From positions 32,001 to 96,000 of the forward strand of contig JACQIB010000001.1 in NCBI GenBank assembly GCA_016198755.1: 64,000 bases of DNA, given 5' to 3'. Origin of the DNA: Candidatus Aenigmatarchaeota archaeon (lineage in GTDB: Archaea; Aenigmatarchaeota; Aenigmatarchaeia; Aenigmatarchaeales; JACQIB01). The notes beneath the pieces were generated by a model, which saw only the letters and a program-made list of their open reading frames with translations, searched no databases and was not told where the DNA came from. Numbering within the stretch: the first letter of the stretch is position 1; each line of letters begins with the position of its first letter. The translations under genes and the position numbers were made by a program. Shown piece after piece: positions 7,783 through 37,298 of this stretch.

Positions 7783-8298
7783 TCATCCATATCTGAGAAG
7801 TGACTGCAGCTTTTCTATTGAGGAGTTTGTATTGTTGGGATTTATGCCGAGTATTGGTATCTGGAACCTTTTTTTCCTCATTTCCTCTTCTATTTCCTCT
7901 ATTAAAATTCCTTTACCAGGAACATTTCTGTTTCCCTCCTCTATCTGGTAAACTGCACATGTAGGTGAAAATTCCACTCCAAGAATTCCTACAACCTTGT
8001 AGTTTTTAGAAAGGTAAAGTTCTATTTGTTTAATAACATCCTGTGCCATTTTCTTGCACAAAGTCCTGTAGGATTTTGTATCATAGGAACTTTTAGATCT
8101 CGGCTTTCTATTAAGCCCAGAGCCAAATTCCATTTCAGGGCAACCCATTTGTATAAGTCCAATTCCTGCTTCCCCAAGAATATCCAGAATATCCTTAAAA
8201 ACCCCAGGTTGTTTTGCTTTTCCCATTGCAGCAGCGTTCTGATTTAGTATACAGTGAGAAACAAAAACTATCTTTTTACCTCTTTGCATAAAATTCAC
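7783..8298 (-). CDS. DUF523 / TudS-related (2-thiouracil desulfurase-like) Fe-S protein
   Basis: SHCILNQN, QMGCPE, SPTC. Confidence 0.7.
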   Translation of the reverse strand: MNFMQRGKKIVFVSHCILNQNAAAMGKAKQPGVFKDILDILGEAGIGLIQMGCPEMEFGSGLNRKPRSKSSYDTKSYRTLCKKMAQDVIKQIELYLSKNYKVVGILGVEFSPTCAVYQIEEGNRNVPGKGILIEEIEEEMRKKRFQIPILGINPNNTNSSIEKLQSLLRYG

Positions 8299-8538
8299 TT
8301 AGTATACTTTATAACAGTATATTATTTAAAGCACTATAGTTTTTACTTACATTGAGTGGTAAAGTTCAATTTGCGTACGTTTTTTGTCGTATAGTACTAT
8401 AGGTCAATTTAAAGCTCTTGCAGCTTCTAGTAACCATTGTATAGGAATTGCACAAAACAAAATTAACTCGCTCAGTAGAGTAAGTATTTAAACCTTTATA
8501 GCGAGGGTTTAAGTGCTTAATATTGATTCGGTGAATGT

Positions 8539-10625: not shown

Positions 10626-13600
10626 GTGAAAAAAATGGGATATGGATGGGGAAAGGATTTGAAAAAGCCCGAGTTTACAAAAGTCTCGGATGTTATTTGG
10701 GAGATTCCAACAAGCTTTAAGAAAGGAATGAACGTTCCAGCAAGAATATACGCAACAAAGCAGATTCTGGATCAGATGGACCTGATGGTTTTTGACCAGA
10801 TAACAAATGTAGCAACGCTTCCAGGAATTTTGAAATATGCTTACTGTATGCCGGATGGACACAGCGGCTACGGATTTCCAATAGGCGGAGTTGCAGCAAT
10901 GGATGCTGTTGAAGGTGTGATATCACCTGGAGGGATCGGATTTGATATCAACTGCCTCCACCCAGACTCAAAAATTTCTCTTTCCAATGGGACTTGGAAA
11001 AAGGTTTCTGATTTAGAGCATGAATGGGAAAATAAAAGAGTAAAGTTTTTTAATATAGAAAACAAAGCAGTTGAAAATGCCACACCCATTATGTTCATGA
11101 AACGTATGGAGGATAATAGTATTTTTGAAATAGTAACAGAAAGCGGAAGAAAAATAAATGTTACGGCAGAACACCCCATTCTAACTCAAAGAGGGTTTAT
11201 CAGAGCCGATAATCTGAAAGAAACAGATAATGTTTACACTCAGCCATTCAGCGGTGTAGAATACGAGAAGCCATCCGACGAGGTCATAGTTTCCTATGTT
11301 GACATAGAAAGAATTTTGGATGTCATAGGAATAACAAACTCTGGAAACGCAAGAGTTCAAATTTTAAATACACTTAAAAGAGTTGGTTTAAATGAAATAC
11401 GGTACAATTCCACGGCCCTGCCAGCTATTTTGAAAATAATGGGATTTGTTTTTGGAGATGGTTGCATATCTATATTGTCAAAAATAAAAAAAGGGATGAC
11501 AGCCTTTTATGGGAAAAAAGAAGATTTAGAAACTATAAAGGAAGACATAAAAAGTTTAGGGTTTAAAGCACAAAATATTTTTTCAAGGCAACGAAAACAT
11601 AAAATAGAAACTTATTATGGAACAAGCGAATTCGATTTTACAGAGCACTCTCTTTTAAAAAAATCCACAGGATTTGCAGCACTTCTCATAGCACTGGGTA
11701 CGCCACATGGAATTAAAACCTCTCAACCTTACAGGATTCCAAAATGGATAATGAAAGCACCTCTATGGCAGAAAAGACTATTTCTCGCAGCATTTTTTGG
11801 AGCAGAGCTTTCCTCTCCAAAAACTATTAATGCATATAATTTTTATATGCATCAGTTAAATATGAACAAACTAGAAATTCTAAAAGAAAATGGCGAAGAA
11901 TTTTTAAATGATATACGTCTACTGCTTTCTGAATTCTGTATAACATCTACATATCCCACTATAGTAGAAGGTAACCAGTATGTAGGCAAAAAAGGAAAAA
12001 CTATAGGTTTAAGAATTTGTATACATTCAAATCCGGACAATTTGGTCAAGCTCTATGAAAATGTGGGATACGAATATAATAAAGAAAAGTCAAATTTGGC
12101 CTGCCTTGCAGCAAATTACACACGCCTAAAGGAATCCATAAAATCACATAGGAGTGACATACGTACTTTGGCTCTTGAAATGTATAAATCAGGCGAAAGA
12201 CCGCGGGATATTAGAGCCGCTTTACTACAAGAAAACATATCAAAAAATTTTATAAACCATTCTATATGGCCTGATAGGAGCAATAATGTAAGGTTGCCTG
12301 CCGCATCAATTACTTTTGCTTTTGATGAATTCAAGAAAAATCTTATAGGAGATGGCATTGTTATCGACAAAATAAAAAAGATCGAACAACACCCCTATAA
12401 AGGATTTGTATATGATATTACAATTAACAATGAAAACCACAATTTTATAGCCAATAATATTATTTCTCACAATTGTGGAATGAGACTTGTTACTACAAAC
12501 CTTACTCTGAAGGATGTACAGCCTAAGCTGAAAGAACTTGTGGATAAGTTGTTCCAGAAGGTTCCAGCGGGAGTTGGTTCAGAAGGTTTTCTAAAGCTTA
12601 CAAAAGATGAGTTCAGGAAAGTTGTTGAGGAAGGGGCAGAGTGGTGCGTGAAAAAAGGATATGGATGGGAGGAAGATTTGCAGAGGACAGAGCTGTATGG
12701 GAGATGTAAGGATGCTGATGCAAAGAAAATCAGCCAGAAATCTGTGGATAGGGGGTATAGCCAGATAGGAACTTTAGGTTCTGGAAATCATTATTTGGAA
12801 ATACAGCATGTAAAACCAGAGAACATTATTGACAAGGCTACAGCAAAGGCATTCGGAATTTTCCCTGATCAGGTTGTAATAATGTTTCACTGCGGTTCCC
12901 GCGGGTTTGGCCATCAGGTTGCAACAGATTATCTTAACACTTTCCTTTCTGTAATGGAAAGCAAATATAAAATAAAGATTTTAGACAGGGAACTTGCATG
13001 TGCTCCGTTTAATTCTCCGGAAGGACAGGATTACTTTACTGCAATGAAATGCGGAATAAATATGAGCTTTGCAAATAGACAGGTTATTCTGCACAGGATT
13101 CGTGAAGTCTTTTCAGATGTTTTCAAACAGCCAGCAGATAAAATGGGTTTACAAATGGTTTATGATGTTGCCCACAACAGAGGTTCTTTGGAAAAGCATT
13201 TAGTGGATGGTAGCTGGAGGGAAGTTATTGTACACAGAAAGGGGGCTACTGCGTGCTTTGGTCCCAACAGAACTGAAGTGCCAAAAATCTGGCAATCCAC
13301 TGGTCAGCCCGTAATTATTGGTGGTTCAATGGAAACAGGTTCATACCTTTTAGTTGGTACAGATAAGGCAGCAGAAACATTTTTTTCAACTGCCCACGGA
13401 GCAGGCAGAACAATGAGCAGGACAAAAGCAAAGGGATTATGGAGAGGGGAACAACTTGTGAAAGATATGCAGAAGAAGGGAATTTACGTGCGCACAGTAT
13501 CTTTCCCAGGATTAGCTGAAGAGGCTGGTGGAGCTTACAAAGATATAGATTCTGTTATAAATGCTGCAGATTTGGCTGGTATTTCAAAGAAAGTTACAAA

Positions 13601-13631
13601 ACTTGTTCCAATAGGAAACGTAAAAGGTTAG
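10626..13631 (+). CDS. rtcB: RNA-splicing ligase RtcB with intein
   Basis: MPDGHSGYGFPIGG, GFDIN/CG, GTLGSGNHYLE, HCGSRG, HRKGAT, STAHGAGR, YKDID. Confidence 0.97.
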   Translation: MKKMGYGWGKDLKKPEFTKVSDVIWEIPTSFKKGMNVPARIYATKQILDQMDLMVFDQITNVATLPGILKYAYCMPDGHSGYGFPIGGVAAMDAVEGVISPGGIGFDINCLHPDSKISLSNGTWKKVSDLEHEWENKRVKFFNIENKAVENATPIMFMKRMEDNSIFEIVTESGRKINVTAEHPILTQRGFIRADNLKETDNVYTQPFSGVEYEKPSDEVIVSYVDIERILDVIGITNSGNARVQILNTLKRVGLNEIRYNSTALPAILKIMGFVFGDGCISILSKIKKGMTAFYGKKEDLETIKEDIKSLGFKAQNIFSRQRKHKIETYYGTSEFDFTEHSLLKKSTGFAALLIALGTPHGIKTSQPYRIPKWIMKAPLWQKRLFLAAFFGAELSSPKTINAYNFYMHQLNMNKLEILKENGEEFLNDIRLLLSEFCITSTYPTIVEGNQYVGKKGKTIGLRICIHSNPDNLVKLYENVGYEYNKEKSNLACLAANYTRLKESIKSHRSDIRTLALEMYKSGERPRDIRAALLQENISKNFINHSIWPDRSNNVRLPAASITFAFDEFKKNLIGDGIVIDKIKKIEQHPYKGFVYDITINNENHNFIANNIISHNCGMRLVTTNLTLKDVQPKLKELVDKLFQKVPAGVGSEGFLKLTKDEFRKVVEEGAEWCVKKGYGWEEDLQRTELYGRCKDADAKKISQKSVDRGYSQIGTLGSGNHYLEIQHVKPENIIDKATAKAFGIFPDQVVIMFHCGSRGFGHQVATDYLNTFLSVMESKYKIKILDRELACAPFNSPEGQDYFTAMKCGINMSFANRQVILHRIREVFSDVFKQPADKMGLQMVYDVAHNRGSLEKHLVDGSWREVIVHRKGATACFGPNRTEVPKIWQSTGQPVIIGGSMETGSYLLVGTDKAAETFFSTAHGAGRTMSRTKAKGLWRGEQLVKDMQKKGIYVRTVSFPGLAEEAGGAYKDIDSVINAADLAGISKKVTKLVPIGNVKG
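10953..12473 (+). mobile_element. Intein (507 aa) with LAGLIDADG homing endonuclease
   Basis: Starts CLHPD after GFDIN, ends SHN before C; block B TAEHP; MGFVFGDG and LAAFFGAE; more AT-rich than the exteins. Confidence 0.95.
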
Positions 13632-21603: not shown

Positions 21604-22641
21604 ATGGAGGAAATACAAAAAATACTGGCTGAAATAAAGCCATACATAGACAAGGAAGTTATATCACTTTTGGAAAAAACACAGCCGGAAATCCTGAAGA
21701 AAGCTGCATTTGAGTATTTTGCGCGCGGAGGGAAAAGATTTAGGCCAGCTTTAACGGCTTTATCATGCGAAGCTCTTGGAGGTATATGGCAGGATACAAT
21801 ACCAGCCGGAGCAGCAATAGAGATAATGCATGCTTTCGCCCTTATACATGACGATATAGAAGACTATTCAGAAATCCGCAGGGGAAAGCCAGCACTCCAT
21901 ATACAATATGGCCTTCCGCACGCGATAAACGCTGGAGATTATTTGCATATGAAAATTTTCGAGGCTCTTTTGCGCGGGCAAAAAGCATGGGGGAATGAAA
22001 AATTATTTTCAGTTCTGGAGCAGTTTGTAGAGCTTTTAATAATAACAGCGCAGGGGCAGGCAATGGAAATTGAAATGAGAGACAAGCCTTTAGAGGAGGC
22101 AACAATGGAATGGTATGAAAAGATGGCTGTTGCAAAAACAGGCTATTATTCCGGCGGGGGACCCTGTGCGATAGGTGCAACAATTGCTGGTGGAACAAGA
22201 GAGCAAATAGCAGCGCTGAAAAAGTTTGGGATTGCAATTGGAGTTGCTTTCCAGATACAGGATGATGTTCTTAACTTGACAATGAGCGAATCCGAAGAAA
22301 AATTGACTCCAGAAACAGGCGGGGGAGGTGTTGGAAAGGATTTTGCAGGTGATTTGGAGGAGGGAAAGAGGACTTTGATTTTGATTCACTGCTTACAAAA
22401 ATGTTCTGGGCATGAAAAGGAAAAATTCAGGGTTTTAATTGGCAAAAAAGGCCTGAAAACAGAACAAAAGAAAGAGTTAATTGCAATAATACAAAGCACA
22501 AAATCCATAGAGTTTGCAAAAGAATATGCAAGGGAAATGTTGCAGAATGCTTTACTCCAGCTTAAGGAAAAAATCCCTGAAACAGAAGGAAGAAAGAAAC
22601 TGGAAGCAACAGCGCAGTTTCTTATAGAGAGAAAATATTAG
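21604..22641 (+). CDS. Trans-prenyltransferase (GGPP synthase-like)
   Basis: GGKRFRP, FALIHDDIED, RRG, FQIQDD, DLEEGK. Confidence 0.92.
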   Translation: MEEIQKILAEIKPYIDKEVISLLEKTQPEILKKAAFEYFARGGKRFRPALTALSCEALGGIWQDTIPAGAAIEIMHAFALIHDDIEDYSEIRRGKPALHIQYGLPHAINAGDYLHMKIFEALLRGQKAWGNEKLFSVLEQFVELLIITAQGQAMEIEMRDKPLEEATMEWYEKMAVAKTGYYSGGGPCAIGATIAGGTREQIAALKKFGIAIGVAFQIQDDVLNLTMSESEEKLTPETGGGGVGKDFAGDLEEGKRTLILIHCLQKCSGHEKEKFRVLIGKKGLKTEQKKELIAIIQSTKSIEFAKEYAREMLQNALLQLKEKIPETEGRKKLEATAQFLIERKY

Positions 22642-22719
22642 CCAATTGTCGTAGTCGTCAATAAATCAAATCAACAGAAAAGCTTTTTATTCTTAGTTTA
22701 CCCCTTTAATTGAGATTTT

Positions 22720-24132
22720 ATGCCCAGCAAACCAGTTGGAATAGAAGCAATGTATGTTTACACTCCTCAATTTTGTGTAACTTCTGAAACATTAGCAAAC
22801 GCAAGGGGCGCAAAATTAACACATTTTACAGAAGGAATAGGTATAGGTTCCTTTTCATTCCCCCCACCAAATGAAGATCATGTAAGTATGGCAGCAACAG
22901 CAGCATTAAGGCTGATGAAAGAACAAGATATAGATCCAAGGGATATAGCAAGGATTGATTTGGCAACAGAAAGCAGCAGGGAGGGTTCAAGGGGAGCTCC
23001 TTCTGATGTTGTAGGAGCATTGGAACAGGCTTTTGGTACAAACAGCTTTCGCCACGTAGCTGGTGTAGAATATAAGTTTGCTTGCATTGGTGGCGTAGAA
23101 GCTCTTAGAAATTCATGTGCACTAGCTGCACCAGACTGGCTTCCAGAAGGGAGACATAATATTGTTATAGCAACAGATTTTGCAAGATATCATTTAAGGA
23201 GCGGTGAGGAGCCAACACAGGGAGCTGCAGCAGCAGCATTATTGATAGGCAGGAAACCAAGGCTTTTGGAGATTGTACCCCGTGCTTATGGTTCAGCAAT
23301 GAGATATGAACCCGGAGACTTCAGCAAGCCAGGCGGAAGATCCATAGCGAATGTAAATGGAGGGCTATCTGTAGGTTCCTATTTAAGTGAAATGAGAACA
23401 GCTTGGTCAGGTTTTATAGCTGCTGTTAAAGAAACAGGATTTATAGTACCTTCTTCAGGGATGTGCGTAAGCGACAGTATAGACAAAGGAATTTGGCATA
23501 ATCCTCACCTGAAACAAGTGCAATCTGCTCATGCTTCCCTACTAATGCATGAATGGATCGGCTTGCCTTCAAAGCAGGATATTTTCAGAAACTTAGGCAC
23601 CCCTCCAGAAAGAGGCGAAACTCCGGATCATGTATTTTATGCTAGTCAGCCCTATAAGGATTATAGAAAACGTTTCATGAAAGAGCCAGTGGTTGTAAGG
23701 GATTTCGATAAGAGGATAAAACCCTCTACTGTTGCTCCTTTCGATATAGGCAATTCTTATTCTGCATCAGTTTTTGTTGGTATTGACAGCCTTTTTGAAA
23801 CAGACCCAGAAGACTTGGCAGGCAAAACAGTTGTTTTGGCTGGTTATGGTAGCGGAAGCCATGCTCTGATACAGGCAACCAGAGTTCCAGAAGATTATAT
23901 GCCTGTAGCAAAAAGGCTTGATTTAATGAATAGGCTGAAAAGAAGAGAACACCTCAGCATAGGCGCATATGAAACATGGCATGATTTTCATGATGGCGTA
24001 CAAAGTGGTCTTGTGAAGCCAAGTGATATTAGCTTGCCAAGATCTTTCGCTAGTCCAACGTTCGTTCTCTCTTCAGTTGGTGCCATCAAAAGTCCGACAG
24101 AAGGACAGAGAACCTATGCTTTGGTAGCATAA
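22720..24132 (+). CDS. mvaS: HMG-CoA synthase (bacterial/haloarchaeal-like type)
   Basis: ATES, FACIGG, EPTQGAAA, HNP, GNSYSAS, GYGSGS. Confidence 0.88.
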   Translation: MPSKPVGIEAMYVYTPQFCVTSETLANARGAKLTHFTEGIGIGSFSFPPPNEDHVSMAATAALRLMKEQDIDPRDIARIDLATESSREGSRGAPSDVVGALEQAFGTNSFRHVAGVEYKFACIGGVEALRNSCALAAPDWLPEGRHNIVIATDFARYHLRSGEEPTQGAAAAALLIGRKPRLLEIVPRAYGSAMRYEPGDFSKPGGRSIANVNGGLSVGSYLSEMRTAWSGFIAAVKETGFIVPSSGMCVSDSIDKGIWHNPHLKQVQSAHASLLMHEWIGLPSKQDIFRNLGTPPERGETPDHVFYASQPYKDYRKRFMKEPVVVRDFDKRIKPSTVAPFDIGNSYSASVFVGIDSLFETDPEDLAGKTVVLAGYGSGSHALIQATRVPEDYMPVAKRLDLMNRLKRREHLSIGAYETWHDFHDGVQSGLVKPSDISLPRSFASPTFVLSSVGAIKSPTEGQRTYALVA

Positions 24133-24170
24133 TTTAGAAAGCATTTAAACAGCTGTGATAAATTAGATTC

Positions 24171-24584
24171 ATGTTCAATCCATTCAGGCAGAGGATAATG
24201 GTTACTGCGGTTTTGAAAAATGGAAAAAAATTCCTTTTGCTGCACAGGAAGAAGCTGGGAATACAGGGAGGCAAGTGGCAGTTGCCTGAAGGAGGTCTGC
24301 ATTTTGCTGAAACCCCTGAGCAGGCTTTGATAAGAGAGATGAGAGAAGAAACAGGCCTTTCCCTGCGGGAAGCAAGGCTTTTAGGAGTTCATACTTCCAC
24401 AATGAGTGAGCTTGGAAAACCTCTATACCATGTAATAAGGCTGTTTTACTCCTGCAAAGCCGCAGGAAAAATAAGGCTAAGCAGGGACCACCCAGAGTTT
24501 ATCTGGGTTACGAGAGAGGGTATAAGAAAGCTTAAATTGTTTGAAGGACTAAGGTGGGGGGAAATAAAAAAGTTTTTGCGTTGA
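24171..24584 (+). CDS. Nudix hydrolase
   Basis: GGLHFAETPEQALIREMREETGL. Confidence 0.9.
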   Translation: MFNPFRQRIMVTAVLKNGKKFLLLHRKKLGIQGGKWQLPEGGLHFAETPEQALIREMREETGLSLREARLLGVHTSTMSELGKPLYHVIRLFYSCKAAGKIRLSRDHPEFIWVTREGIRKLKLFEGLRWGEIKKFLR

Positions 24585-24589
24585 TTAAA

Positions 24590-25612
24590 ATGGTGTATAT
24601 TGGAACAGCAGAGGCAAGCCCTAACATGCCTTTTGTAAAATACTGGGGAAAAAGAAATGAAGCTCTAATTTTGCCAATGAACTCAAATATTTCAGCAACC
24701 TTCGACTCCAGTCTGGCAACACGCACAACTGTTTTCTTTTCTGAATCCTTGAAAGCCGATGAACTCTGGATAAACGGAAAGCAGTTTCCTCCTGAAAGTT
24801 TGGATAAAGCAATTCCCCAGCTAAACATAATCAGGGAGTTAGCTGGTATACAGATGTTTGCTAAAATATATTCTATAAGCAAAGTTCCTGTTGCAGCTGG
24901 TCTTTCAAGTTCTTCAGCAGGATTATGTGCTTTGGCTCTGGCGTCTGCTTCAGCGCTCGGGCTTAAACTGCCGGCAGAAGAGCTTTCAATTATCTGCAGG
25001 CGCGGCTCAGGCAGTTCCTGCCGCTCAATCTATGGGGGATTTGTAGAATGGGTAAGAGGGGACAAAACAGATGGTTCAGATTCTTATGGTGTACAGATAG
25101 CAGATGATAAACACTGGCCAGAACTCAGAATGCTTGCAGTTTCCATTGAGGAAACAGAAAAAAAGGTTAAAAGCAGGGCAGGAATGAAACAGACTGTTTT
25201 AACTTCCACACTGTATCAAAAACGATTACAGGATATTGGGAATACACTGGATTCTGTAAGGAATGCTATAAGGAACAAGAACTTCCAATCTTTAGCAGAA
25301 TTAACAATGAAAGAAAGCAATAACATGCACGCAGTTTGTATGGATACATGGCCTCCAATACTTTACCTGAATGACAATTCAAGGACTGTTATACAATCTA
25401 TACATGATTTCAACGAGGGCGGGCTGCGCGCAGCCTATACTTTTGATGCTGGCCCAAACCCCTATATTATAACAGAGGAAAAGAACCTAAAGTCTGTTCT
25501 GGAGCTCTTGAAAAAAATGAGTTTCATAAAACATATTTTTATCTCAAAGATAGGCGGAAACCCAAGAGTTCTGGAAGAACATTTGCTGAACGAAAAAGGG
25601 AAACCCGTATGA
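24590..25612 (+). CDS. mvaD: Diphosphomevalonate decarboxylase (start at MVYIG inferred)
   Basis: VKYWGKR, AAGLSSSSAG, RGSGSSCRS, SRAGM, SNNMHA, YTFDAGPN. Confidence 0.92.
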   Translation: MVYIGTAEASPNMPFVKYWGKRNEALILPMNSNISATFDSSLATRTTVFFSESLKADELWINGKQFPPESLDKAIPQLNIIRELAGIQMFAKIYSISKVPVAAGLSSSSAGLCALALASASALGLKLPAEELSIICRRGSGSSCRSIYGGFVEWVRGDKTDGSDSYGVQIADDKHWPELRMLAVSIEETEKKVKSRAGMKQTVLTSTLYQKRLQDIGNTLDSVRNAIRNKNFQSLAELTMKESNNMHAVCMDTWPPILYLNDNSRTVIQSIHDFNEGGLRAAYTFDAGPNPYIITEEKNLKSVLELLKKMSFIKHIFISKIGGNPRVLEEHLLNEKGKPV

Positions 25613-26061
25613 GCCTTGATAAATCAGTTCATTTGAGCGCGGGAGCTTTAGTTTTCTCAGGGAATAAAGTACTTGCAATAAAAAGGCTGAAAGAACCTTT
25701 CAAGGGAAACTGGTCTGTTGTTGGTGGGCATGTAGAAGAGAAAGAACTTCCTAATGAAGCTGCTGTCAGGGAAGTAAAAGAAGAAACAGGGCTTGATATA
25801 GAGCTTATAGACCCGTACATAGAGATTCCTGTAGAATTCTCAGAAGGCTTAAAGCGCCTGCCCCAGCCAATTCTTGTTTCTCTTCTCCCTGTAAAAGACC
25901 ATTACCACATCTCATTCACTTATGCTGCAAAAGCAAAAAGCACAGAGATAAAAATAAACAACATTGAAGGTCTTGTACAGTGGATAGATACGAACAATAA
26001 AGAAATTTCACCTCACCTGCGTTTAGCAATAGACACATACAAAAGAGTTTTGGGAGCATGA
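25609..26061 (+). CDS. Nudix hydrolase
   Basis: GGHVEEKELPNEAAVREVKEETGL. Confidence 0.9.
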   Translation: MSLDKSVHLSAGALVFSGNKVLAIKRLKEPFKGNWSVVGGHVEEKELPNEAAVREVKEETGLDIELIDPYIEIPVEFSEGLKRLPQPILVSLLPVKDHYHISFTYAAKAKSTEIKINNIEGLVQWIDTNNKEISPHLRLAIDTYKRVLGA

Positions 26062-26113
26062 AAATAAAAAATAAAGGTTTTTATTTGCTTGGAAAAACCA
26101 TGGAGGTTTTCCC

Positions 26114-26857
26114 ATGAAAGCAATAATTTTTGACCTTGAGGGGGTTTTATGCGATACGAGAGAGTGGATGAACCATTCTGTGCGCTCTGCTTTTTTTGAG
26201 CATGGTATAGAGCTCGAATTCTCTGATAAGGAGCTTTACAATATACGCGGCTGCGCAGGCTGCTTGAATTCCCCAGAATGGATACAGGTTCTTTTAGCAT
26301 TCAATGGAAAAAATTATATTAACAAAATATACGAACTGGACAAACCAGAGGAGTTTATAGTCTCTGTACTTGAAAAGGAAAAACCAGACAAGCTTTTAGC
26401 AGGTGAGATAAACAAAACCTACAGGGAAATTTACTATTCCCAGAAAAACCAGTTCCGCACTCCCCTCTCAGGAATTAAAGAAGTTCTTGAAAAGCTCAGG
26501 CCAAATTTTTCTTTTGGTATTTTCTCAAACACAAAGCACGATTCTATTCTAAAATTGTTGGATAACGCAGGCATAAGAGGATATTTTTCTATTGTTGTTG
26601 GGCAGGAGGATGTTTCAAAACAAAAACCAGATCCTGAAGGTTTGTTAAAGGCAATTGCAGAATTAAAATCCACACCGCAGGAAACTATCTATATTGGCGA
26701 TACAGCTTCAGATGTGCAGGCAGCGCGTGCAGCAGGCTGTGTTCCAATTGGTCTGCTGACTGGAATGGGAATTGAGCGCTGGCTGCGCGCAGCAGGTGCT
26801 GTCCATATTTTCCCAACATTGAAAGAATTTATCCAAAGTACGGCAATCGTACAATGA
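26114..26857 (+). CDS. HAD-superfamily hydrolase
   Basis: FDLEGVL, FSN, KPDPE, IGDTASD. Confidence 0.88.
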   Translation: MKAIIFDLEGVLCDTREWMNHSVRSAFFEHGIELEFSDKELYNIRGCAGCLNSPEWIQVLLAFNGKNYINKIYELDKPEEFIVSVLEKEKPDKLLAGEINKTYREIYYSQKNQFRTPLSGIKEVLEKLRPNFSFGIFSNTKHDSILKLLDNAGIRGYFSIVVGQEDVSKQKPDPEGLLKAIAELKSTPQETIYIGDTASDVQAARAAGCVPIGLLTGMGIERWLRAAGAVHIFPTLKEFIQSTAIVQ

Positions 26858-26963
26858 ACGTCAATCTACTCTTCCGGAAGCATAGCCTTTATATACCTTT
26901 TCCCCGAGTTCTGTTTTTTAACTCCTATAAATCCTTTTCAACAATAGGAGTAAAGGGGATTAT

Positions 26964-28904: not shown

Positions 28905-30371
28905 ATGGTAGCAGGTATTGAAGATAGAAGAATATTGGAAGACGCGAGAAATGATGTTAGTGGTATAGTAACTAGTATTGCATCCCAATTGCAACATGGT
29001 ATGCATCTTTACAAGGCACCAGAGACTGTTAGAACTTTATACGGGCTTCCACAGACAGATGAAGCCAGTGAGAAAAAGTGCAGAGCCTATGCTGCTGCAG
29101 CTATCAGGAGATTTTTTGCAGAAAAGTATGGAGTGGATACGGTAGCTTTGGCAAGCACTGCCATAGTCCCGCCTCTGGTTAAAAAATCTAAAAAACTTGA
29201 AAATGGAACAACCGTAGATTTATGGGAGTCAAAAATGCCAAATTATATGGGAGGAGGAGTTGGAGGAAGACCTGTATCTGTTGTCGGGCCTGCAACATTA
29301 GAAATAGAAGTTTACGATAATATAAATGGAAAAGGAGAACCAATAAAAGAGAATGTCGTTTACATTCCGCTTGCACCAACAAGATTTGGTGTTGCTGAAG
29401 GTGTTAGCGCAGGATTAAAATATATTGCAGATTCTGGAAAACCAATAAAATTGAAAGTTGAAAGTATAAGCAGGGTAACGAGGTCCCCTGTATTTAAGTT
29501 TCCTACAGAAGCAAGTGCGGAAAGTGCTGCAAACAGTATTGGTGCGGGTGTTAGAAGTCATTTGGAAACAGAAGATAACGGAAACCTATTTGGAGAAATA
29601 AAGGGACTGGCAGACAAACTAATGAAAGGACATAACGGTTCTCTCGAAGGTCTGCACGCTGTTACTCTGGGTCCATACTTATGGGCAAATTTTGTCTATG
29701 AAATGAGCGGGGATAATTATGGGCACGAAGCTGTAACAGCCGTTACCAGAGAAGTGGTAAGAGAGGTGCTTCTAAAAAAATTGCCTCATGCAGAATTAAA
29801 AATGCTTGCAGGAGGGTTGGATGGTGACTTAAGACCTGCAACCAATCGATATGGTCGTATGGGAAACATCAGGGGAAGATGGGTTACTGCTTCAGCAGAG
29901 ATTACACCAGAAACCCTTAAAAAGAGGTTTGGAAATATAAGTCCGGAAGGATTAGCAGAGTTAAATAACTTAAAGCAGAAGGGAAACGAGATTCTAGGTA
30001 CGCATACTTTAGCTGGCATGGGGCCAGAGATTGTTGAAGGAGTGTTTTATGCGCTTGAGCCCCCAACCTCCCCATTCCTCTCCTCTACAATTAGTATGGA
30101 AACAAATGTTAAAGGTGATAGTTTAATACTAAATGCTATATTCCATAATATGGAAGTGGGCACAGTGCGGGAGGGTCCACTTTCAGATATAGCAAGCGAA
30201 TGCAGGGCTATTACAGGGAACATAGATGGGGCAGGAAACCCGATAGGCAGGAATGCGGTAAGAATGGCTGCGCGCATTGCTGCAGCAACTTTAGCTGGGG
30301 AGCTAAACCAATATGCACAAATGGCAACAGGAAGATTAGGAATGGAAGCCTATAGGAATGGAAAGCCATAG
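28905..30371 (+). CDS. Divergent class I HMG-CoA reductase paralogue, catalytic residues replaced
   Basis: Collinear with the neighbouring HMGR: PVSVVGP, YIPLA, TRSPVF, RGRWVTA, EVGTV, AAATLAGELN. Confidence 0.75.
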   Translation: MVAGIEDRRILEDARNDVSGIVTSIASQLQHGMHLYKAPETVRTLYGLPQTDEASEKKCRAYAAAAIRRFFAEKYGVDTVALASTAIVPPLVKKSKKLENGTTVDLWESKMPNYMGGGVGGRPVSVVGPATLEIEVYDNINGKGEPIKENVVYIPLAPTRFGVAEGVSAGLKYIADSGKPIKLKVESISRVTRSPVFKFPTEASAESAANSIGAGVRSHLETEDNGNLFGEIKGLADKLMKGHNGSLEGLHAVTLGPYLWANFVYEMSGDNYGHEAVTAVTREVVREVLLKKLPHAELKMLAGGLDGDLRPATNRYGRMGNIRGRWVTASAEITPETLKKRFGNISPEGLAELNNLKQKGNEILGTHTLAGMGPEIVEGVFYALEPPTSPFLSSTISMETNVKGDSLILNAIFHNMEVGTVREGPLSDIASECRAITGNIDGAGNPIGRNAVRMAARIAAATLAGELNQYAQMATGRLGMEAYRNGKP

Positions 30372-31637: not shown

Positions 31638-31761
31638 GTACCTTTTCATATTATCTACCTTAAAACAAAATGTTCTGGTTCTTTTAAAAACCATTTTCTA
31701 ACGTCACCTGCCTTTTTGCCATCAGAAAGCTATATAAGTTTAGCAATACCTCAAAAGGCTT

Positions 31762-32775
31762 ATGATAACAGCTTCAGCCCCAGGTAAAATACTGCTTTTT
31801 GGGGAGCATGCAGTTGTATATGATAAGCTTGGAATAGCTGCTGCAATAGACAAAAGAATAGGGGTTTCAGCCTACAAAGGAGGCACAGCTGTAGAACTCC
31901 AGCAGCCTTTTCATTTTCCAACACTTAGAAAAACACAGGATGAAATAGAGGAACTACACGCACAGTTCAGGCTTTTGTTTGAACAAAAGCAGTTTGATAA
32001 AATAAAAGAATTAGGTTTCCATAATGCAATATATGTTATGCTCGGGGAAATATTTTCCAAACATGGCTATTCAAACATTATAGCCCGCGCCCATTTATCA
32101 CATACGTTAAAGGGAATAGGCGCATCAGCAAGTTTGTTTTCTGCACTCTCAGCTGCAACATTAAAAGTCCTTGGTGTTGAAGCAACTCTAAAAGAGATAT
32201 CAGACTTTTCCTATATTGGGGATGTTGTAGCCCATGGAGGCACACCGTCCGGTATAGATAACAGCATTGCAACTTTTGGCGGGTTTTTATCCTTTAGGAA
32301 ATCAGAAGGTCCAAAACCCTTAAAACTTGACTTAAACGCAAAGATAATTGTAGTAGATACAGGTGAAAAGTCTTCTACAGCTGAGCTTGTTTCCAATGTG
32401 CGCAATTTGCGCGAAAAGGAACCTGAAAGAGTAAATAAAATAATGGACGAAATAGATTCTATTTCTAATGAGGCTTTGGTAAAAATAAAGAACAGGGATA
32501 TTGTAGCTCTCGGAAACCTAATGGACAGAAATCACACATTGTTAAAATCCTTAGGTTGCGGCCTTTCCACCGAAAGAATAGAAAAAATAGTGTCTATTGC
32601 AAAGGAAAACGGAGCTTATGGCGCAAAACTGTCTGGAGCAGGTGGTGGAGGGATATGCATTGCTTTGACAGACAATCCAAAAAAGATATTAGACTCACTG
32701 AAAAATGCAGGTTTTTACTGTTTTGAAACAAATCTTGGAGCCCATGGGGTTTCAATAGATGAAACAGGTTTTTGA
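31762..32775 (+). CDS. mvk: Mevalonate kinase
   Basis: APGKILLFGEHAVVY, HGGTPSGID, KLSGAGGGG. Confidence 0.85.
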   Translation: MITASAPGKILLFGEHAVVYDKLGIAAAIDKRIGVSAYKGGTAVELQQPFHFPTLRKTQDEIEELHAQFRLLFEQKQFDKIKELGFHNAIYVMLGEIFSKHGYSNIIARAHLSHTLKGIGASASLFSALSAATLKVLGVEATLKEISDFSYIGDVVAHGGTPSGIDNSIATFGGFLSFRKSEGPKPLKLDLNAKIIVVDTGEKSSTAELVSNVRNLREKEPERVNKIMDEIDSISNEALVKIKNRDIVALGNLMDRNHTLLKSLGCGLSTERIEKIVSIAKENGAYGAKLSGAGGGGICIALTDNPKKILDSLKNAGFYCFETNLGAHGVSIDETGF

Positions 32776-32861
32776 CACATTTTTCAATAAACCATACTTC
32801 GCTTTTTGCCGTATTATTAAAAACTCTTTATAAATTAGCCACATGCTGAATTTACTACGTT

Positions 32862-33821
32862 ATGGTCAAGGTATCAGCCCCAGGAAAGCTCTTGCTCTGC
32901 GGGGATCATGCAGTTGTACATGGAAATCCATGTATTGTAACAGCAGTGGATCACAGAGCTTTTGTTACTGCTAAAAGCACTGGCGGGAACGCTGTTGTTG
33001 TAAAAGCCCCTGATGTTGGCATAACAGAATTCTCATATCCACTACCTTTCAATGGTCTTTCAGTTCCAAAAGGTGCAGCTTTTGTAATACAGGCAGTGAA
33101 AAACTTCTATGGCAAATATGGACTTAGCGATGGACTTGTTATAGAGACAGCTTCTGAGTTTCCATCTTCATTTGGGCTTGGAAGTTCTTCTGCTGTAACA
33201 GTAGCTACCGTAAAAGCACTATCAGATATTTTCTCAATAAAAATGGAACCACGCGAGATTTTTGATCTTTCATATAAAACTGTTTTGGATGTGCAGGGTG
33301 TGGGATCTGGATTTGATGTTGCATCAGCAGCCTATGGAGGAACACTGTTTTATTTTACAGGAGGAAAAATAATCGAACCTCTCACTGTTAAAAAAATTCC
33401 CTTGATTGTAGGCTATACAGGACAGAAAGCTGATACAGCTACAATAGTAAGGAAGGTGGATGAGAAATTAAAAGCCTATCCTGATCATGTTCTTTCAAAT
33501 TTCAATCTTATAGGAAAAATAGTGCTGGATGCAAAAGATACAATAGAGAGAAAAGACTGGAAGAAACTGGGGGATATTTTCAATTTCGACCACGGTCTGC
33601 TTTCAGGTTTAGGAGTTTCCTGCGCAGAGCTTGAAAAGCTTGTATTTGCTGCGCGCAACGCAGGTGCTTACGGTGCAAAACTATCGGGAGCAGGCGGGGG
33701 GGATTGTATGATAGCTGTTTCAGAAGACACAGAGAGCATTGTAACAGCAATAGACAGCGCAGGCGGGAAAGTTATTCCAGTCAGGACAGGCGTTGAAGGA
33801 GTAAGGATAGAGACTGAATAA
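32862..33821 (+). CDS. GHMP kinase, (phospho)mevalonate kinase-like
   Basis: APGKLLLCGDHAVV, FGLGSSSA, QGVGSGFDVA, KLSGAGGGDC. Confidence 0.8.
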   Translation: MVKVSAPGKLLLCGDHAVVHGNPCIVTAVDHRAFVTAKSTGGNAVVVKAPDVGITEFSYPLPFNGLSVPKGAAFVIQAVKNFYGKYGLSDGLVIETASEFPSSFGLGSSSAVTVATVKALSDIFSIKMEPREIFDLSYKTVLDVQGVGSGFDVASAAYGGTLFYFTGGKIIEPLTVKKIPLIVGYTGQKADTATIVRKVDEKLKAYPDHVLSNFNLIGKIVLDAKDTIERKDWKKLGDIFNFDHGLLSGLGVSCAELEKLVFAARNAGAYGAKLSGAGGGDCMIAVSEDTESIVTAIDSAGGKVIPVRTGVEGVRIETE

Positions 33822-33971
33822 AAAGGAGCGCTTAAATTCACTAAAAGCAAACAACCTTTCTATGAAAACAATAGGGTAGATAAGCATGGAAAAATCCTTT
33901 CTTCTGCACTGTTGGAGATGAAATATAGGCAGGAACATGGGTTTAAATAGATTTTTCTTCCTTTAGCTGTT

Positions 33972-35198
33972 ATGAAAGAAACCGTTGTCTCGGCTCCCGG
34001 AAAATTCTTATTGACAGGAGAATATCTAGTAGCATTAGAGTCAGATAGGCCCGCATATTCTGCTGCCATTAACAGAAGAGTATTTTCTTGGATAGGGGAG
34101 CTGGAAGGGAGATCTGTAACAATAAACATGCCCCAGTTTGGAATTGTAGGGAAAATGGATATAGGCGATGGTGGTAAAACAGAAGTATATCCAACAAGCA
34201 AACGGAGGCAGTTCAGATATATTGAGAATGCGGTGGAATTTACGCTCAGATATTTGAAAGAGGCAGGCGTTTCATTAGAGGGAATGCATATAATTACCTT
34301 AAATGAAAGGGATTTTTTCAGAGATTGGGGAATTTCTAAATCAAGGTTTGGAAGCTCTGCTGCAGCTACTGTGGCTACAGTTGGTGCAATATTTTCCTAT
34401 TATCATAGGGATATTTCAAACCCAGAGGAGAGGGAGCGTATATTTAACCTGTCGCAGATGGCTCACCATCATTCACAGGGCGGGTTTGGCAGCGGGTTTG
34501 ATGTGTCAACGTCTCTCAATGGATCTCAAGTTTACACAAGATTCCCAGAAGATAATATACCACCCAAAGCCACTTTAACTAACAAAGTTATTCTTAATCG
34601 TACTGATTCTAAATGGACATATTCGATGCGTTCGCTCGGGCTTCCCGAAGGCGTAGAAACAGCCATAGCAGTGACCAGAGGTTTAGACAATCCCATTGAA
34701 ATGCTGTCTAGAGTGAGGCATATGAAAAGTTCCAGACAAGACATTTACGGTGATGTAATGAACAAACTCGATGTGGCAAACAGGGATTTTGTGAGTCTTC
34801 TTGAAAGAGGCGTCAGAGGAGAAGAAATAGGGCAGGCTCTAACAAGAACCAGATTGCTTACCAGAGAGCTTGGAGAAAAGTCTGGTGTTGTTATAGAGCC
34901 TCCCCACATCAGGGCAGCATTAGACAATGTTGTTTCCATGGGAGGTGCATGGGGGGCAAAACTCCAAGGAGCTGGTGGAGGATACTCTGCAATTGCACTA
35001 TGTTCAATGGAACATTTTTATCACAGTTGTGGAATAATGTCTACGGCAGGCTTTACTCCTCTCTCTGACATGAGAGTAGATAATTCAACTGAAAAACCTA
35101 TTGGAATGAGATTAGAAGACCCCCAGACATTTCATGATCTGGCAAACAGTCTGGGGTTAGCACTTTTTGAACCCGATCATGGATATCATGAAAATTGA
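33972..35198 (+). CDS. Phosphomevalonate kinase-like (ERG8 type), divergent
   Basis: SAPGKFLLTGEYLV, KSRFGSSAA, AHHHSQGGFGSGFDV, YTRF, GAGGG. Confidence 0.75.
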   Translation: MKETVVSAPGKFLLTGEYLVALESDRPAYSAAINRRVFSWIGELEGRSVTINMPQFGIVGKMDIGDGGKTEVYPTSKRRQFRYIENAVEFTLRYLKEAGVSLEGMHIITLNERDFFRDWGISKSRFGSSAAATVATVGAIFSYYHRDISNPEERERIFNLSQMAHHHSQGGFGSGFDVSTSLNGSQVYTRFPEDNIPPKATLTNKVILNRTDSKWTYSMRSLGLPEGVETAIAVTRGLDNPIEMLSRVRHMKSSRQDIYGDVMNKLDVANRDFVSLLERGVRGEEIGQALTRTRLLTRELGEKSGVVIEPPHIRAALDNVVSMGGAWGAKLQGAGGGYSAIALCSMEHFYHSCGIMSTAGFTPLSDMRVDNSTEKPIGMRLEDPQTFHDLANSLGLALFEPDHGYHEN

Positions 35199-35267
35199 TT
35201 TTCAACTGTCGTACAATATACGACAGCTCTAACAACGCTTAAATAGACTTTTCCTTAAACAAAGCCC

Positions 35268-36323
35268 ATGCCAGAGTCTTCCAGAGACTTTACACCCAGC
35301 AGAAAATCAGAGCACATAAGAATAACAACTCAGGAGAATGTGGAAACTGGGAGCACGGGATTTGAGGACGTTTCTTTATTACATAAAGCTGTTCCGGAGC
35401 TGAATTTTGAGAAAGTTTCAACTGAAACAGAGTTTTTCGGAAAGAAATTCTCTCTCCCTCTAATGATAGCAGGAATGACTGGAGGGGCAGTAGAAACAAA
35501 GGAAATTAATTTAGGTTTGGCAAAGGCAGCTGAAGAGGCTGGGATAGGGATGGGGGTTGGTTCACAGAAAGCAATGATTGAACATGAAGAATTAACAGAA
35601 ACCTATTCTGTGCGTTCTATTGCACCTACAATTTTTCTGTGCGGAAATATCGGTTTACCAAAATTAAAAATATACTCTGTGCAGCAGATTGAAAAAATGC
35701 TGCTCTCTATTAAGGCAGATGCTCTCTGTGTCCATTTAAACCCTGCACAAGAACTGTTTCAAAAAGACTCTGAGATAGAGCCAGACTGGACAGGCTGCTT
35801 CTCTGCCTTAAAAACTATTTGCTCTGAGCTAAACTATCCTGTTATAGCAAAGGAAGTTGGAAATGGTATCTCGAAAGAAACAGCTGTCCAGCTAAAAGAA
35901 GCGGGGGTTAAAGCAATCGATGTTGGCGGAGCTGGTGGAACAAGCTGGGTTGTTATAGATGGTATGAGATCTGGAAAGGATACAACAGATTTTAAAAATT
36001 GGGGAATTCCAACTGCAATCTCAATTCTCGAGGCAAGGAAAGCTGGATTACCAATAATTGCAACAGGCGGGCTTCGCTCTGGGCTGGATATTGCAAAAGC
36101 CCTTGTTCTTGGAGCTGATTTGGCTGGAATAGCCCTGCCTTTCCTAAAAGAGTTCAAACGTGGCGGTGTTCCAGCTGTTGAAGCCTATATAGAAAAGCTG
36201 GAAAGAGAGCTGCGCACAGCAATGTTTCTCTCTGGCTGTAAATCAATCTCCGAGCTGAAAAAACTCAAACCAATTATAACAGGCAAAACAAAAGAATGGG
36301 CAGAACAGCGCGGCTTATTTTAG
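35268..36323 (+). CDS. fni: Type 2 isopentenyl-diphosphate isomerase (FMN)
   Basis: RKSEHI, GMTGG, GVGSQ, HLNPAQE, KEVGNG, GAGGTSW, WGIPT. Confidence 0.95.
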   Translation: MPESSRDFTPSRKSEHIRITTQENVETGSTGFEDVSLLHKAVPELNFEKVSTETEFFGKKFSLPLMIAGMTGGAVETKEINLGLAKAAEEAGIGMGVGSQKAMIEHEELTETYSVRSIAPTIFLCGNIGLPKLKIYSVQQIEKMLLSIKADALCVHLNPAQELFQKDSEIEPDWTGCFSALKTICSELNYPVIAKEVGNGISKETAVQLKEAGVKAIDVGGAGGTSWVVIDGMRSGKDTTDFKNWGIPTAISILEARKAGLPIIATGGLRSGLDIAKALVLGADLAGIALPFLKEFKRGGVPAVEAYIEKLERELRTAMFLSGCKSISELKKLKPIITGKTKEWAEQRGLF

Positions 36324-36368
36324 GCAGGTTCATATCACTTTTTAAGTGTAGATTTGTTAACAAAACAT

Positions 36369-37298
36369 ATGGCAAAAATAACGATATTGGGCGCAGGTGC
36401 TATGTCATCTGCCATTTCCATTCCGCTTATAAAAAACAGGAATAAAGTTAATATCTGGGGAACAGAATTCGATAAAGCAATTATAGACAAGCTAAAGTCA
36501 GATCAGCCACACCCCACGTTAAATATGATAATAGATGCAAATTTCTTTTATTCTGATCAGCTCGCGGAAGCCATAGAAGACTCGGAAATTGTGATATTTG
36601 GTGTGGTTTCCTCCGGCGTTAGAAAGATTGCACAAATGGCAAAGAAGTTTTTGAAAAAGCAAATAATAGTAAATGTCGCAAAAGGGTTTGATAACGGCCA
36701 AACAATGGTAGAGGTTTTGGAGCAGGAACTTCCCGATTTACCAAAGGTTGTGGTTGCAGGTCCATCTAACGCAAAAGACGTTTCCCAATCCCAGAATACA
36801 ACAGTTGTTTTTGCATCTTCTGATGTACATGCGGCAGATATATGCAAAAAGGCGTTCCAAACAGAAAACTACAGCATAGAAATTTCCGACGATTCAAACG
36901 GTGCTGAGATATGTTCCTCCCTCAAAAACGTATACGGTATACTTATCCACTCCGCAAAGACAGATAACGAGCGGTCAGTGCTTTTTGTAAAATCCCTTGA
37001 GGAGATTGGCATATTTGCAGAAGCATGCGGAGGCAAGTTAAAAACAGTTTATGGCTTGGCAGGAGCCGGAGACCTTTACCTAACACAATGGGGAAGGAAT
37101 GGCATGCTTGGCAAAATGATAGCAGATGGAAAGAAACCCTCTGCAGCATTGGAAGAACTAAAGGCAAAAAACATTACTGTAGAAGGATATGCTGCAACAA
37201 AGGCTGCAGTTGAGCTTGCAAAATCAAAAAACCTAAACCTGCCTTTGTTGGAATCTGCATATAATCTTCTCTACAGGGACCAGCCCTTCAAAATATAA
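36369..37298 (+). CDS. gpsA: NAD(P)H-dependent glycerol-3-phosphate dehydrogenase (GpsA type)
   Basis: ILGAGAM, AKG, GPSNA, LKNVY, GLAGAGDL.LT..GRN, VEG. Confidence 0.88.
   Translation: MAKITILGAGAMSSAISIPLIKNRNKVNIWGTEFDKAIIDKLKSDQPHPTLNMIIDANFFYSDQLAEAIEDSEIVIFGVVSSGVRKIAQMAKKFLKKQIIVNVAKGFDNGQTMVEVLEQELPDLPKVVVAGPSNAKDVSQSQNTTVVFASSDVHAADICKKAFQTENYSIEISDDSNGAEICSSLKNVYGILIHSAKTDNERSVLFVKSLEEIGIFAEACGGKLKTVYGLAGAGDLYLTQWGRNGMLGKMIADGKKPSAALEELKAKNITVEGYAATKAAVELAKSKNLNLPLLESAYNLLYRDQPFKI

Follow-up and report, generated by a model that had tools for sequence, protein, structure and literature searches.

Why would an archaeon keep, directly upstream of an intact gene for 3-hydroxy-3-methylglutaryl-CoA (HMG-CoA) reductase, a second gene of the same fold whose catalytic residues have all been replaced? 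The question is raised by a 64,000-nt stretch of contig JACQIB010000001.1 (GCA_016198755.1, forward strand, positions 32,001 to 96,000), called here the window, from an Aenigmatarchaeota-like member of DPANN (genome G000; 890,842 bp in six contigs, 89% complete). We refer to the second gene as the paralogue and to the canonical HMG-CoA reductase (HMGR) behind it as HmgA. In front of the paralogue lie the genes for the SucC-like beta and SucD-like alpha subunits of an ADP-forming CoA ligase. Our favoured answer, to which we give a probability of about 0.4, is that the paralogue is a non-redox protein binding 3-hydroxy-3-methylglutarate (HMG) within a ligase-based route to HMG-CoA.

The frame of the paralogue (28905-30371, plus strand) is unbroken over 488 aa, just as the initial annotation had it, and the HMGR frame downstream starts 3 nt later. 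The protein passes Pfam family PF00368 weakly (44.1 bits over residues 141-478, gathering cut-off 27) and fails the NCBIfam equivalog-domain cut-off of TIGR00533 (59.8 vs 441.8 bits). Besides PF00368, no known lyase, hydratase or transferase motif was found in Pfam and NCBIfam. BLASTP aligns the paralogue with HmgA at 30% identity over 182 aa (E 2e-12), and the two are the sole HMGR-like genes in the whole genome. An AlphaFold2 model built on a 14-sequence alignment (predicted local distance difference test 86.6, predicted template-modelling score 0.88) has the predicted N, L and S domains of the class I HMGR fold. Foldseek placed the human (1dq8) and Methanothermococcus (6hr7) reductases at the top for this model, with an E-value of 1e-24 and a template-modelling score of 0.72 by target length.

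The catalytic residues of HMGR are Glu559, Lys691, Asp767 and His866 in human numbering, as listed in PMC7503714. All four are replaced in the paralogue. Compared with HmgA, ATTEG has become APTRF, with Arg160 for the catalytic Glu (R in all 14 family members); SGNLCSDKKP has become AGGLDGDLRP, with Leu309 for the Lys (L in 10 and M in 4 of 14); GQD reads EPP, with Pro387 for the Asp; and the column of the C-terminal catalytic His holds Ala482 (K in 11, A in 2 and S in 1 of 14). Among 30 canonical HMGRs these columns contain E, K, D and H in 29, 29, 30 and 27 sequences, respectively. The changes extend to other motifs: IENPIG reads MPNYMG, AMGMN reads NYGHE (the NADPH loop DAMGMN thus being GDNYGHE), and the N of GMN corresponds to E275 (E in 12 and D in 2 of 14). 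GTYGGGT reads GTVREGP, the G columns of GGGT becoming E423 or gaps, and NAH.AN of HMGR is GM.PE in the paralogue family. Every substitution listed in the initial annotation, including the losses of GQD and of the C-terminal His, was recovered in our alignments and column table, and its central observation, a catalytically degenerate HMGR paralogue upstream of an active enzyme, stands: the neighbour keeps the four catalytic residues.

The CoA-contact residue Arg568 is replaced by A169 (A in 5, Y in 4, F in 4 and M in 1 family member, vs R in 28 of 30 canonical sequences). The clamp for the HMG carboxylate (Arg590, Lys692, Lys735) has stayed basic, as R193 (14 of 14), R310 (R in 10, A in 3, K in 1) and R325 (14 of 14). 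Judged from the alignment, the NADPH motifs are gone, neither the DAMGMN nor the GT.GGGT loop being present. We are highly confident that the paralogue is a real protein of the class I HMGR fold and not a reductase.

A gene of this kind could be a decaying tandem duplicate of hmgA without function, as its rarity and the loss of all catalytic residues might suggest, but we attach almost no weight to this. The alignment of 14 family members, 24-64% identical to the window protein, has 36 invariant columns, the frame is unbroken in all 14, and the gene order is conserved across two phyla. The ratio of nonsynonymous to synonymous substitution rates (dN/dS), which the initial annotation had proposed as a check for a decaying duplicate, speaks for purifying selection: between L015 and L016, the closest pair of loci with DNA sequence, the paralogue has a Nei-Gojobori value of 0.078, in the range of HMGR (0.064) and below those of the ligase beta subunit (0.13) and mevalonate kinase (0.165). 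Since the gene is intact, without reductase machinery and under purifying selection, it is not a decaying duplicate; it is retained either as a pseudoenzyme, for which lost catalytic residues and purifying selection are the marks, or as a rebuilt enzyme.

The position of the conserved residues is informative in this respect. Conservation was set at 13 or more of 14 sequences for the paralogues and at 85% or more of 30 for the canonical HMGRs; the paralogue set (35 columns) and the canonical set (54 columns) have 19 columns in common among 377 shared (odds ratio 10.4, Fisher p 3e-9). In 6 of the 19 the fixed residue has been switched: E to R160, R to N262, N to G304, C to D306, N to E375 and E to S393. 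The conserved residues specific to the family are R160, R193, H274, E275, D306, D308, R323, R325, E375, S393, S394, E417, E423, N468 and Q469; among them R160, H274, D306, D308, R325, E375, S393, S394 and E417 occupy former catalytic or cofactor positions and are fixed in no fewer than 13 of the 14 members, and E423 is E in 13 of 14. The ancestral active site thus carries the constraint, and the pocket has been rebuilt rather than abandoned, since conservation concentrates on the ancestral active-site columns, six of them with a new fixed residue. The new invariant His, Glu and Asp leave room for catalysis by the paralogue, which may still occur.

The family is rare. Four matches were found in a word-indexed search of 5.8 billion proteins and only 5 proteins in a word-indexed homologue search with the family profile. 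In an exhaustive HMMER search, 6 proteins out of 1.84 billion representatives reached E <= 1e-30, followed by about 5 more distant members (84-127 bits) before the ordinary HMGRs in the ranking. The protein atlas returned only generic HMGR and SucC clusters. In the phylum of the window the paralogue is present in 2 of 371 genomes, G000 and G021 (a relative of the same order, 92% complete), the other 29 matching genomes having ordinary HMGRs at no more than 125.5 bits. In a second phylum, which includes Micrarchaeota, it is present in 3 of 401 genomes, and it was also found on one metagenome contig. In a tree of 52 rows, for which only the 32 sequences of 380-480 aa were retained from representatives P0012-P0094, the 14 paralogues form one clade (Shimodaira-Hasegawa-like approximate likelihood ratio support 98) on a long branch apart from 36 canonical sequences, and this clade does not visibly fall inside that of the DPANN HMGRs. 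Its sister branch, a bacterial one, consists of P0015 and P0051, which also lack the catalytic residues. These two HMGR-fold proteins (435 and 451 aa) share D306, D308, L309, RGR, GM..E, VSS and EEG with the paralogue family and differ from it in a Thr at the R160 position and in retaining the CoA-contact Arg. The atlas holds a 451-aa cluster, mainly of Thermodesulfobacteriota, which may be the same group.

What the paralogue is kept for is best approached through its neighbours. Six loci with DNA sequence (the window, L013, L014, L015, L016 and L017), from two phyla and one metagenome contig, were compared, and the order beta-alpha-paralogue is found in all six; the link to the ligase, one of several options in the initial annotation, is the strongest signal that we obtained. 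HMGR directly follows the paralogue in five of the six. The exception is L014 (genome G041), where paralogue and ligase are unlinked from an HMGR of another type, 40% identical to that of the window. Pairwise identities of the paralogue follow those of the beta (r 0.94) and alpha (r 0.88) subunits more closely than those of HMGR (r 0.65) across 15 pairs, which are not independent. In L017, the metagenome contig, a LuxE-like gene (AMP-binding, 373 aa) and a LuxC/aldehyde-dehydrogenase-like gene (473 aa) lie directly upstream of the unit (1251-3780), preceded by a FIST-domain gene.

The ligase also occurs next to HMGR without the paralogue. A search with the beta subunit in the second phylum matched 16 of 401 genomes, and six further genomes (L094-L099) have the same ligase loop type and no paralogue. 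The order is beta-alpha-HMGR in L095, L096 and L099; in L097 the HMGR is a divergent neighbour of the ligase; in L098 two genes, for a 297-aa protein of no named family and an M20-family hydrolase, stand between ligase and HMGR; and in L094 the contig ends just past alpha. Counted over all 12 loci, 10 have HMGR no further than two genes from the ligase, among them 5 of the 6 that lack the paralogue. As an insert between alpha and HMGR the paralogue is optional, and it would be dispensable for the route, since the ligase-HMGR pair exists without it. The M20-family peptidase/deacylase genes of these paralogue-less operons (L096:5561-6781 and L098:8267-9388), each beside a 275-297-aa protein, may provide a step that frees the acid substrate of the ligase.

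The initial annotation had favoured a hetero-oligomeric regulator of HmgA, and this role was not borne out. A dead regulatory or scaffolding subunit joined to HmgA, for instance a metabolite sensor, would agree with the place directly upstream of HMGR in five of six loci, with the common fold and probably oligomerising architecture, and with purifying selection on a protein without catalytic residues. We nevertheless regard it as unlikely, since the linkage to HMGR can be broken, the oddities of HmgA do not depend on the paralogue, and a catalytic heterodimer would have two dead sites. The first point comes from G041, in which the ligase is still adjacent and the HMGR is not; the strict linkage to the ligase would be left unexplained. 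As to the second, HmgA scores 340.4 bits in Pfam and 403.1 bits for TIGR00533, just short of the cut-off of 441.8, retains Glu107, Lys243, Asp318 and His414, and shows lineage-specific changes (PIL for YIP, MTRDV, GAAMGMN, ESGN, GRGV, GTYGGGT). The same HMGR type, with these unusual substitutions, is found alone in four genomes without the paralogue (G048 and G067-G069). The third rests on the split of the HMGR site, in which, according to PMC7503714, one subunit gives S684, D690, K691, K692, D767 and the NADPH site and the other E559, K735, N755 and H866; since the paralogue has lost key residues of either share, both sites of a heterodimer would be disabled. Of the three readings that survive (HMG-binding accessory, new enzyme and regulator of HmgA) we rank this one lowest.

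The idea that complementary losses in HmgA and the paralogue form one hybrid site was rejected, given that the HmgA changes occur in four paralogue-less genomes and that either half of the site is incomplete in the paralogue. The HmgA lineage of DPANN HMGRs lacks the Lys of GRGK (Val or Thr instead) and the Asp of GDAMGMN (Ala or Ser), as well as the Pro residues of YIP and MTRAP. In G048 and G068, the two inspected (L048:9027-10271 and L049:8515-9762), the HMGR is in operons with AcnX, UbiD/UbiX and an amino-acid-kinase-family gene resembling isopentenyl phosphate kinase.

If HmgA is not the partner that explains the paralogue, the ligase deserves attention. Its two subunits have the architecture of an NDP-forming acyl-CoA ligase, alpha with a CoA-binding domain and the phosphohistidine motif GHAGA (H249, invariant in the alignment), beta with ATP-grasp and CoA-ligase domains; the alpha start overlaps the beta stop by 1 nt. 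Alpha exceeds the NCBIfam SucD cut-off (379.5 vs 336 bits), whereas beta falls under that of the SucC equivalog NF001913 (244.7 vs 370 bits). The acid-site loops of beta are SGAGL, NFLD.AQ.D (LDMAQVD in the window) and FAGLNRCD, compared with NGAGL, LDVGGGA and FGGI.R.D in solved chains of succinyl-CoA synthetase and AGGGGS, AEFSGDP and AIANFTRVD in a citrate-type enzyme of the same genome. In sequence they form a third type beside those of the succinate and citrate enzymes. Seven of eight betas with such loops are under the SucC cut-off, and the beta of the window, with neither the equivalog score nor succinate-type loops, lacks these marks of a succinyl-CoA synthetase proper. Within the phylum of the window the loop type is restricted to G000 and G021 (21 loci in 20 matching genomes, 371 searched), and viral contigs scanned with the ligase beta yielded none. 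Neither a full-length SdhA-type protein nor a 2-oxoacid:ferredoxin oxidoreductase was found in G000, so that a housekeeping succinyl-CoA synthetase would have no evident use there.

The citrate-type set is on the minus strand of contig C3 (L012:7663-10478) and comprises a beta subunit with the citrate-binding domain of ATP-citrate lyase (9309-10478), an alpha subunit (8413-9312) and a 249-aa protein with a citrate-synthase C-terminal domain (7663-8412). It is a split ATP-citrate lyase and probably the acetyl-CoA source of the cell. Elsewhere, the ligase beta of L098 (4692-6479) has an N-terminal extension of about 220 aa without a Pfam match.

Genomes with the ligase also tend to differ in the usual entry to the mevalonate pathway. 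We contrasted 11 ligase genomes with the 29 genomes of the window's phylum in which HMGR occurs but the ligase does not, counting PF00108 as thiolase. Thiolase is present in 28 of 29 genomes without the ligase vs 6 of 11 with it (Fisher p 0.0036), and archaeal-type HMG-CoA synthase (HMGS) in 28 of 29, at 395 bits or more, vs 3 of 11 (p 1.8e-5). Among the ligase genomes, thiolase was not found in G000, G021, G592, G593 and G421. In G000 neither the N nor the C domain of thiolase nor a KAS-III C domain was detected, in G021 neither thiolase nor HMGS was found, and G021, G592 and G593 revealed no HMGS-like gene. The ligase is thus associated with missing thiolase and canonical HMGS as a statistical tendency, not as a rule; strict replacement of both by the module was rejected, since G041-G043 have both. 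The HMGS of the window (22720-24132), the sole thiolase-superfamily gene found in G000, scores at best 198 bits vs 800 and is far under all equivalog cut-offs. Very divergent HMGS-like proteins of 536-551 aa also occur in ligase genomes without archaeal-type HMGS (L097:1684-3294, G575:C37 and G421:C34), that of L097 matching Pfam HMG_CoA_synt_C with 38.7 bits.

These gene contents could also be read as a sign that the ligase activates another acid, either acetoacetate in replacement of thiolase or succinate for CoA transfer to HMG, with the paralogue assisting. The HMGS-like gene of G000, with visible Cys, His and Glu motifs in a genome where no thiolase was found, and the 5 of 11 ligase genomes without detected thiolase agree with it. 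Yet no HMGS-like gene able to make use of acetoacetyl-CoA was seen in G021, G592 and G593, the ligase has HMGR and not HMGS as its conserved partner, and the succinate-site loops are changed. We judge this explanation very unlikely.

We therefore return to the HMG-binding paralogue in a ligase-based route. Its functional unit would be three or four genes (SucC-like beta, SucD-like alpha, paralogue and HmgA) with the ligase-reductase pair as core. Most likely the ligase would thioesterify free HMG with CoA and ATP, and HmgA would reduce the HMG-CoA so made to mevalonate, an entry that would need neither thiolase nor HMGS. An HMG-CoA-forming ligase is the simplest proposal because a dicarboxylate-activating ligase adjoins an enzyme that uses the CoA ester of a dicarboxylic acid. 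HMG is a methyl analogue of citrate, with methyl in place of carboxyl at C3, and by analogy the proposed reaction would be the same chemistry that the ligase family already performs on citrate to give citryl-CoA. The paralogue would be an optional accessory that captures or orients the free di-acid, or holds the product, for the ligase-reductase pair. R160, at the place of the former Glu, would lie beside the carbon that bears the thioester in HMG-CoA, with R193, R310 and R325 holding the HMG carboxylate as a clamp, and a pocket of four arginines would suit a di-anion, for instance free HMG. Since HMG is prochiral and HMGR can use a single thioester isomer, a fold that already distinguishes the two arms of HMG could be a natural helper. 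We read the paralogue as a non-redox HMG binder because the clamp is kept, R160 has been added, and the NADPH loops and the CoA-contact Arg are lost. The substrate of the ligase, the ligand of the paralogue, any physical contact and any catalysis are inferred throughout. Participation of the paralogue in a ligase-based supply of HMG-CoA is in our view probable; that it acts by binding HMG with no chemistry of its own is a more tentative suggestion.

Several observations weigh against this account. No source of free HMG was identified in these genomes, and spontaneous hydrolysis of HMG-CoA is invoked as the supply. The role of the paralogue itself is the weakest link of the route, as the ligase-HMGR pair also occurs without it. 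The gene is present in only 5 of the 772 DPANN genomes searched, and the invariant H274, E275, D306, D308, E375 and E423 resemble a catalytic or metal site more than a plain pocket. The ligase type is common worldwide, FAGLNR[CA]D being found in 105 of the best 120 database matches, several of them from bacterial metagenome-assembled genomes, and the enzyme may still use succinate or another acid. As for thiolase and HMGS, the Micrarchaeota genomes with the full module (G041-G043) hold both in canonical form. Five further ligase genomes carry divergent HMGS-like genes; such genes encode 470 aa in the window, a 492-aa frame in G735 and 536-551 aa in G575, G421 and G440. If any HMGS-like gene is counted, the contrast shrinks to 28 of 29 vs 8 of 11 (p 0.056), among genomes that are mutually related and in groups partly from different phyla, with completeness not given for six ligase genomes (G4xx-G7xx).

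The residues that fit a plain pocket poorly speak for a new enzyme, with a non-redox and possibly metal-dependent step at the old hydride-transfer centre and a pocket of one His-Glu pair, two Asp, two Glu and four Arg. Such an enzyme could supply the ligase with HMG set free from a conjugate or precursor, convert the CoA-ester product of the ligase into HMG-CoA as a hydratase or transferase, or, by analogy with citryl-CoA synthetase and citryl-CoA lyase, cleave or form HMG-CoA as a lyase. Near-invariant residues at former catalytic or cofactor positions, most of them common to P0015 and P0051, would be explained, the gene order copies that of the citrate system of G000, and the M20-family hydrolase that the L096 and L098 operons carry instead fits the need for an acid-freeing step. 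On the other hand, PF00368 is the only family matched and no motif of a known lyase, hydratase or transferase was detected, A169 has taken the place of the CoA-contact Arg, and the ligase-HMGR pair stands without the paralogue in other lineages. We consider a new enzyme rather unlikely, if less so than a regulator of HmgA. In its fullest form, ligase, paralogue and HmgA would make up an ATP-driven entry to mevalonate without thiolase and HMGS, in which the paralogue as a true non-redox enzyme performs chemistry at the old hydride-transfer centre, e.g. making or freeing HMG or setting its stereochemistry; we think this whole is unlikely.

The genes of the mevalonate pathway form one plus-strand row in the window (Table 1). 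The spacers between beta, alpha, paralogue and HmgA are -1, 4 and 3 nt, and those flanking the four genes are 106 and 124 nt. Each of the latter contains a candidate box resembling the archaeal TATA consensus; the first is a possible start of the four-gene unit beta-alpha-paralogue-HmgA and the second of the next unit, from mevalonate kinase.

Table 1. Features of the mevalonate gene row in the window (positions of the window)
Feature	Position	Strand	Remarks
Polyprenyl synthase	21604-22641	+	Upstream context
Divergent HMG-CoA synthase, 470 aa	22720-24132	+	Upstream context
Nudix	24171-24584	+	Upstream context
Diphosphomevalonate decarboxylase	24554-25612	+	Upstream context
Nudix (second)	25609-26061	+	Upstream context
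HAD hydrolase	26114-26857	+	Upstream context; whole upstream set 21604..26857
Candidate TATA-like box CCTTTATATACC	26886..26897	+	In 106-nt spacer before ligase genes; read from sequence
SucC-like beta, ADP-forming CoA ligase, 353 aa	26964..28025	+	Pfam ATP-grasp_2 and Ligase_CoA
SucD-like alpha, 291 aa	28025..28900	+	Pfam CoA_binding and Ligase_CoA
Paralogue, HMGR-fold protein, 488 aa	28905..30371	+	Pfam PF00368
HmgA, canonical class I HMGR, 420 aa	30375..31637	+	Pfam 340.4 bits
Candidate TATA-like box AAGCTATATAAGT	31727..31739	+	In 124-nt spacer before mevalonate kinase; read from sequence
Mevalonate kinase	31762-32775	+	Downstream context
Second mevalonate-kinase-like GHMP kinase	32862-33821	+	Downstream context
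Phosphomevalonate-kinase-like	33972-35198	+	Downstream context
Type 2 isopentenyl diphosphate isomerase	35268-36323	+	Downstream context; whole downstream set 31762..36323

The tandem mevalonate-kinase-like GHMP kinases (31762-33821) both exceed the TIGR00549 cut-off (216 and 196 bits vs 163), and directly after the isomerase, still in the lipid-precursor row, there is a bacterial-type NAD-dependent glycerol-3-phosphate dehydrogenase of the GpsA family (36354-37298). Archaeal markers in the genome include RtcB with an intein, archease, Rpb4, DUF655, TrmB, Trm1, TFIIB and the CCA-adding enzyme. Four sequencing runs that contain this DNA, all of DNA and none of RNA, belong to a single groundwater study, which may be where it comes from. 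The intein of RtcB is in a 1001-aa frame (window 10626-13631), and another, with a LAGLIDADG domain, is in a GlmS-like amidotransferase of 1085 aa (L012:14744-18001).

HMG-CoA reductase is among the best-studied enzymes, and the branch of the paralogue has given up the machinery of reduction, while its substrate pocket was retained and rebuilt. It is a conserved HMGR-fold branch in an apparently undescribed pathway context, with its biochemistry inferred; in a literature search that left subscription journals outside its coverage, we found no paper that describes the paralogue family or an HMG-CoA ligase of the ADP-forming kind. Should the ligase indeed convert free HMG to HMG-CoA, some DPANN archaea would build their lipid precursors from a six-carbon acid that is scavenged or recycled. 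This would bear on the host dependence of reduced symbionts for lipids, and metabolic engineering would gain an ATP-driven shortcut to mevalonate. If the paralogue is a true enzyme, its activity would be the first of the HMGR fold other than reduction, and the system would be a third member of the design that combines a thiokinase with an acyl-CoA-fold partner, beside the citrate and malate systems. In either case it is a clean test case for telling a pseudoenzyme from a neofunctionalised enzyme.

Among known systems, class I HMGR (EC 1.1.1.34) is the nearest in fold. The paralogue shares its N, L and S domains, the family profile matches 6HR7 at 109.8 bits, and it retains R193 (the MTR-motif Arg), D308 (the cis-loop Asp) and the RG of GRGK; in contrast, the four catalytic residues, the NADPH loops and the CoA-contact Arg are absent, and the clade is separate and long-branched. 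To our knowledge, the only other described use of this fold is FcrA, which is still a reductase. FcrA is an HMGR-related fatty acyl-CoA reductase that cannot reduce HMG-CoA, according to PMC11948995, and resembles the paralogue as a class I homologue recruited to another job. The same source indicates that FcrA keeps the Glu, Lys, Asp and His and the use of NADPH, all of which the paralogue has lost.

On the side of the ligase, SucCD agrees in its two subunits, its ATP-grasp domain and its phosphohistidine motif, but the beta subunit here is under the equivalog cut-off and its three loops are of the third type. A route from free HMG to HMG-CoA is known in succinate-hydroxymethylglutarate CoA-transferase (SUGCT, EC 2.8.3.13), a type III CoA-transferase with an unrelated fold. 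Pseudoenzymes that partner active relatives are exemplified by the prozyme of trypanosomatid S-adenosylmethionine decarboxylase and by deoxyhypusine synthase pairs. There too a dead paralogue is kept by selection beside an active enzyme; here, by contrast, the linked partner is the ligase, and the old pocket is rebuilt with new invariant residues instead of having drifted.

The closest parallel in organisation is that of citryl-CoA synthetase with citryl-CoA lyase, and of ATP-citrate lyase, where a SucCD-type thiokinase is followed by a protein of acyl-CoA-binding descent. The operon order beta, alpha and acyl-CoA-binding-fold protein holds in all six paralogue loci, and the citrate-type set of G000 itself has the same order, a thiokinase and then a protein descended from an enzyme that binds the same acyl-CoA. 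The differences are that the third gene has an HMGR fold and not a citrate-synthase fold, that the beta subunit lacks Citrate_bind, and that the context is biosynthetic. By analogy, and with no claim of membership, the nearest models for how the paralogue would work are the third gene in the citryl-CoA synthetase/lyase design and a retained pseudoenzyme.

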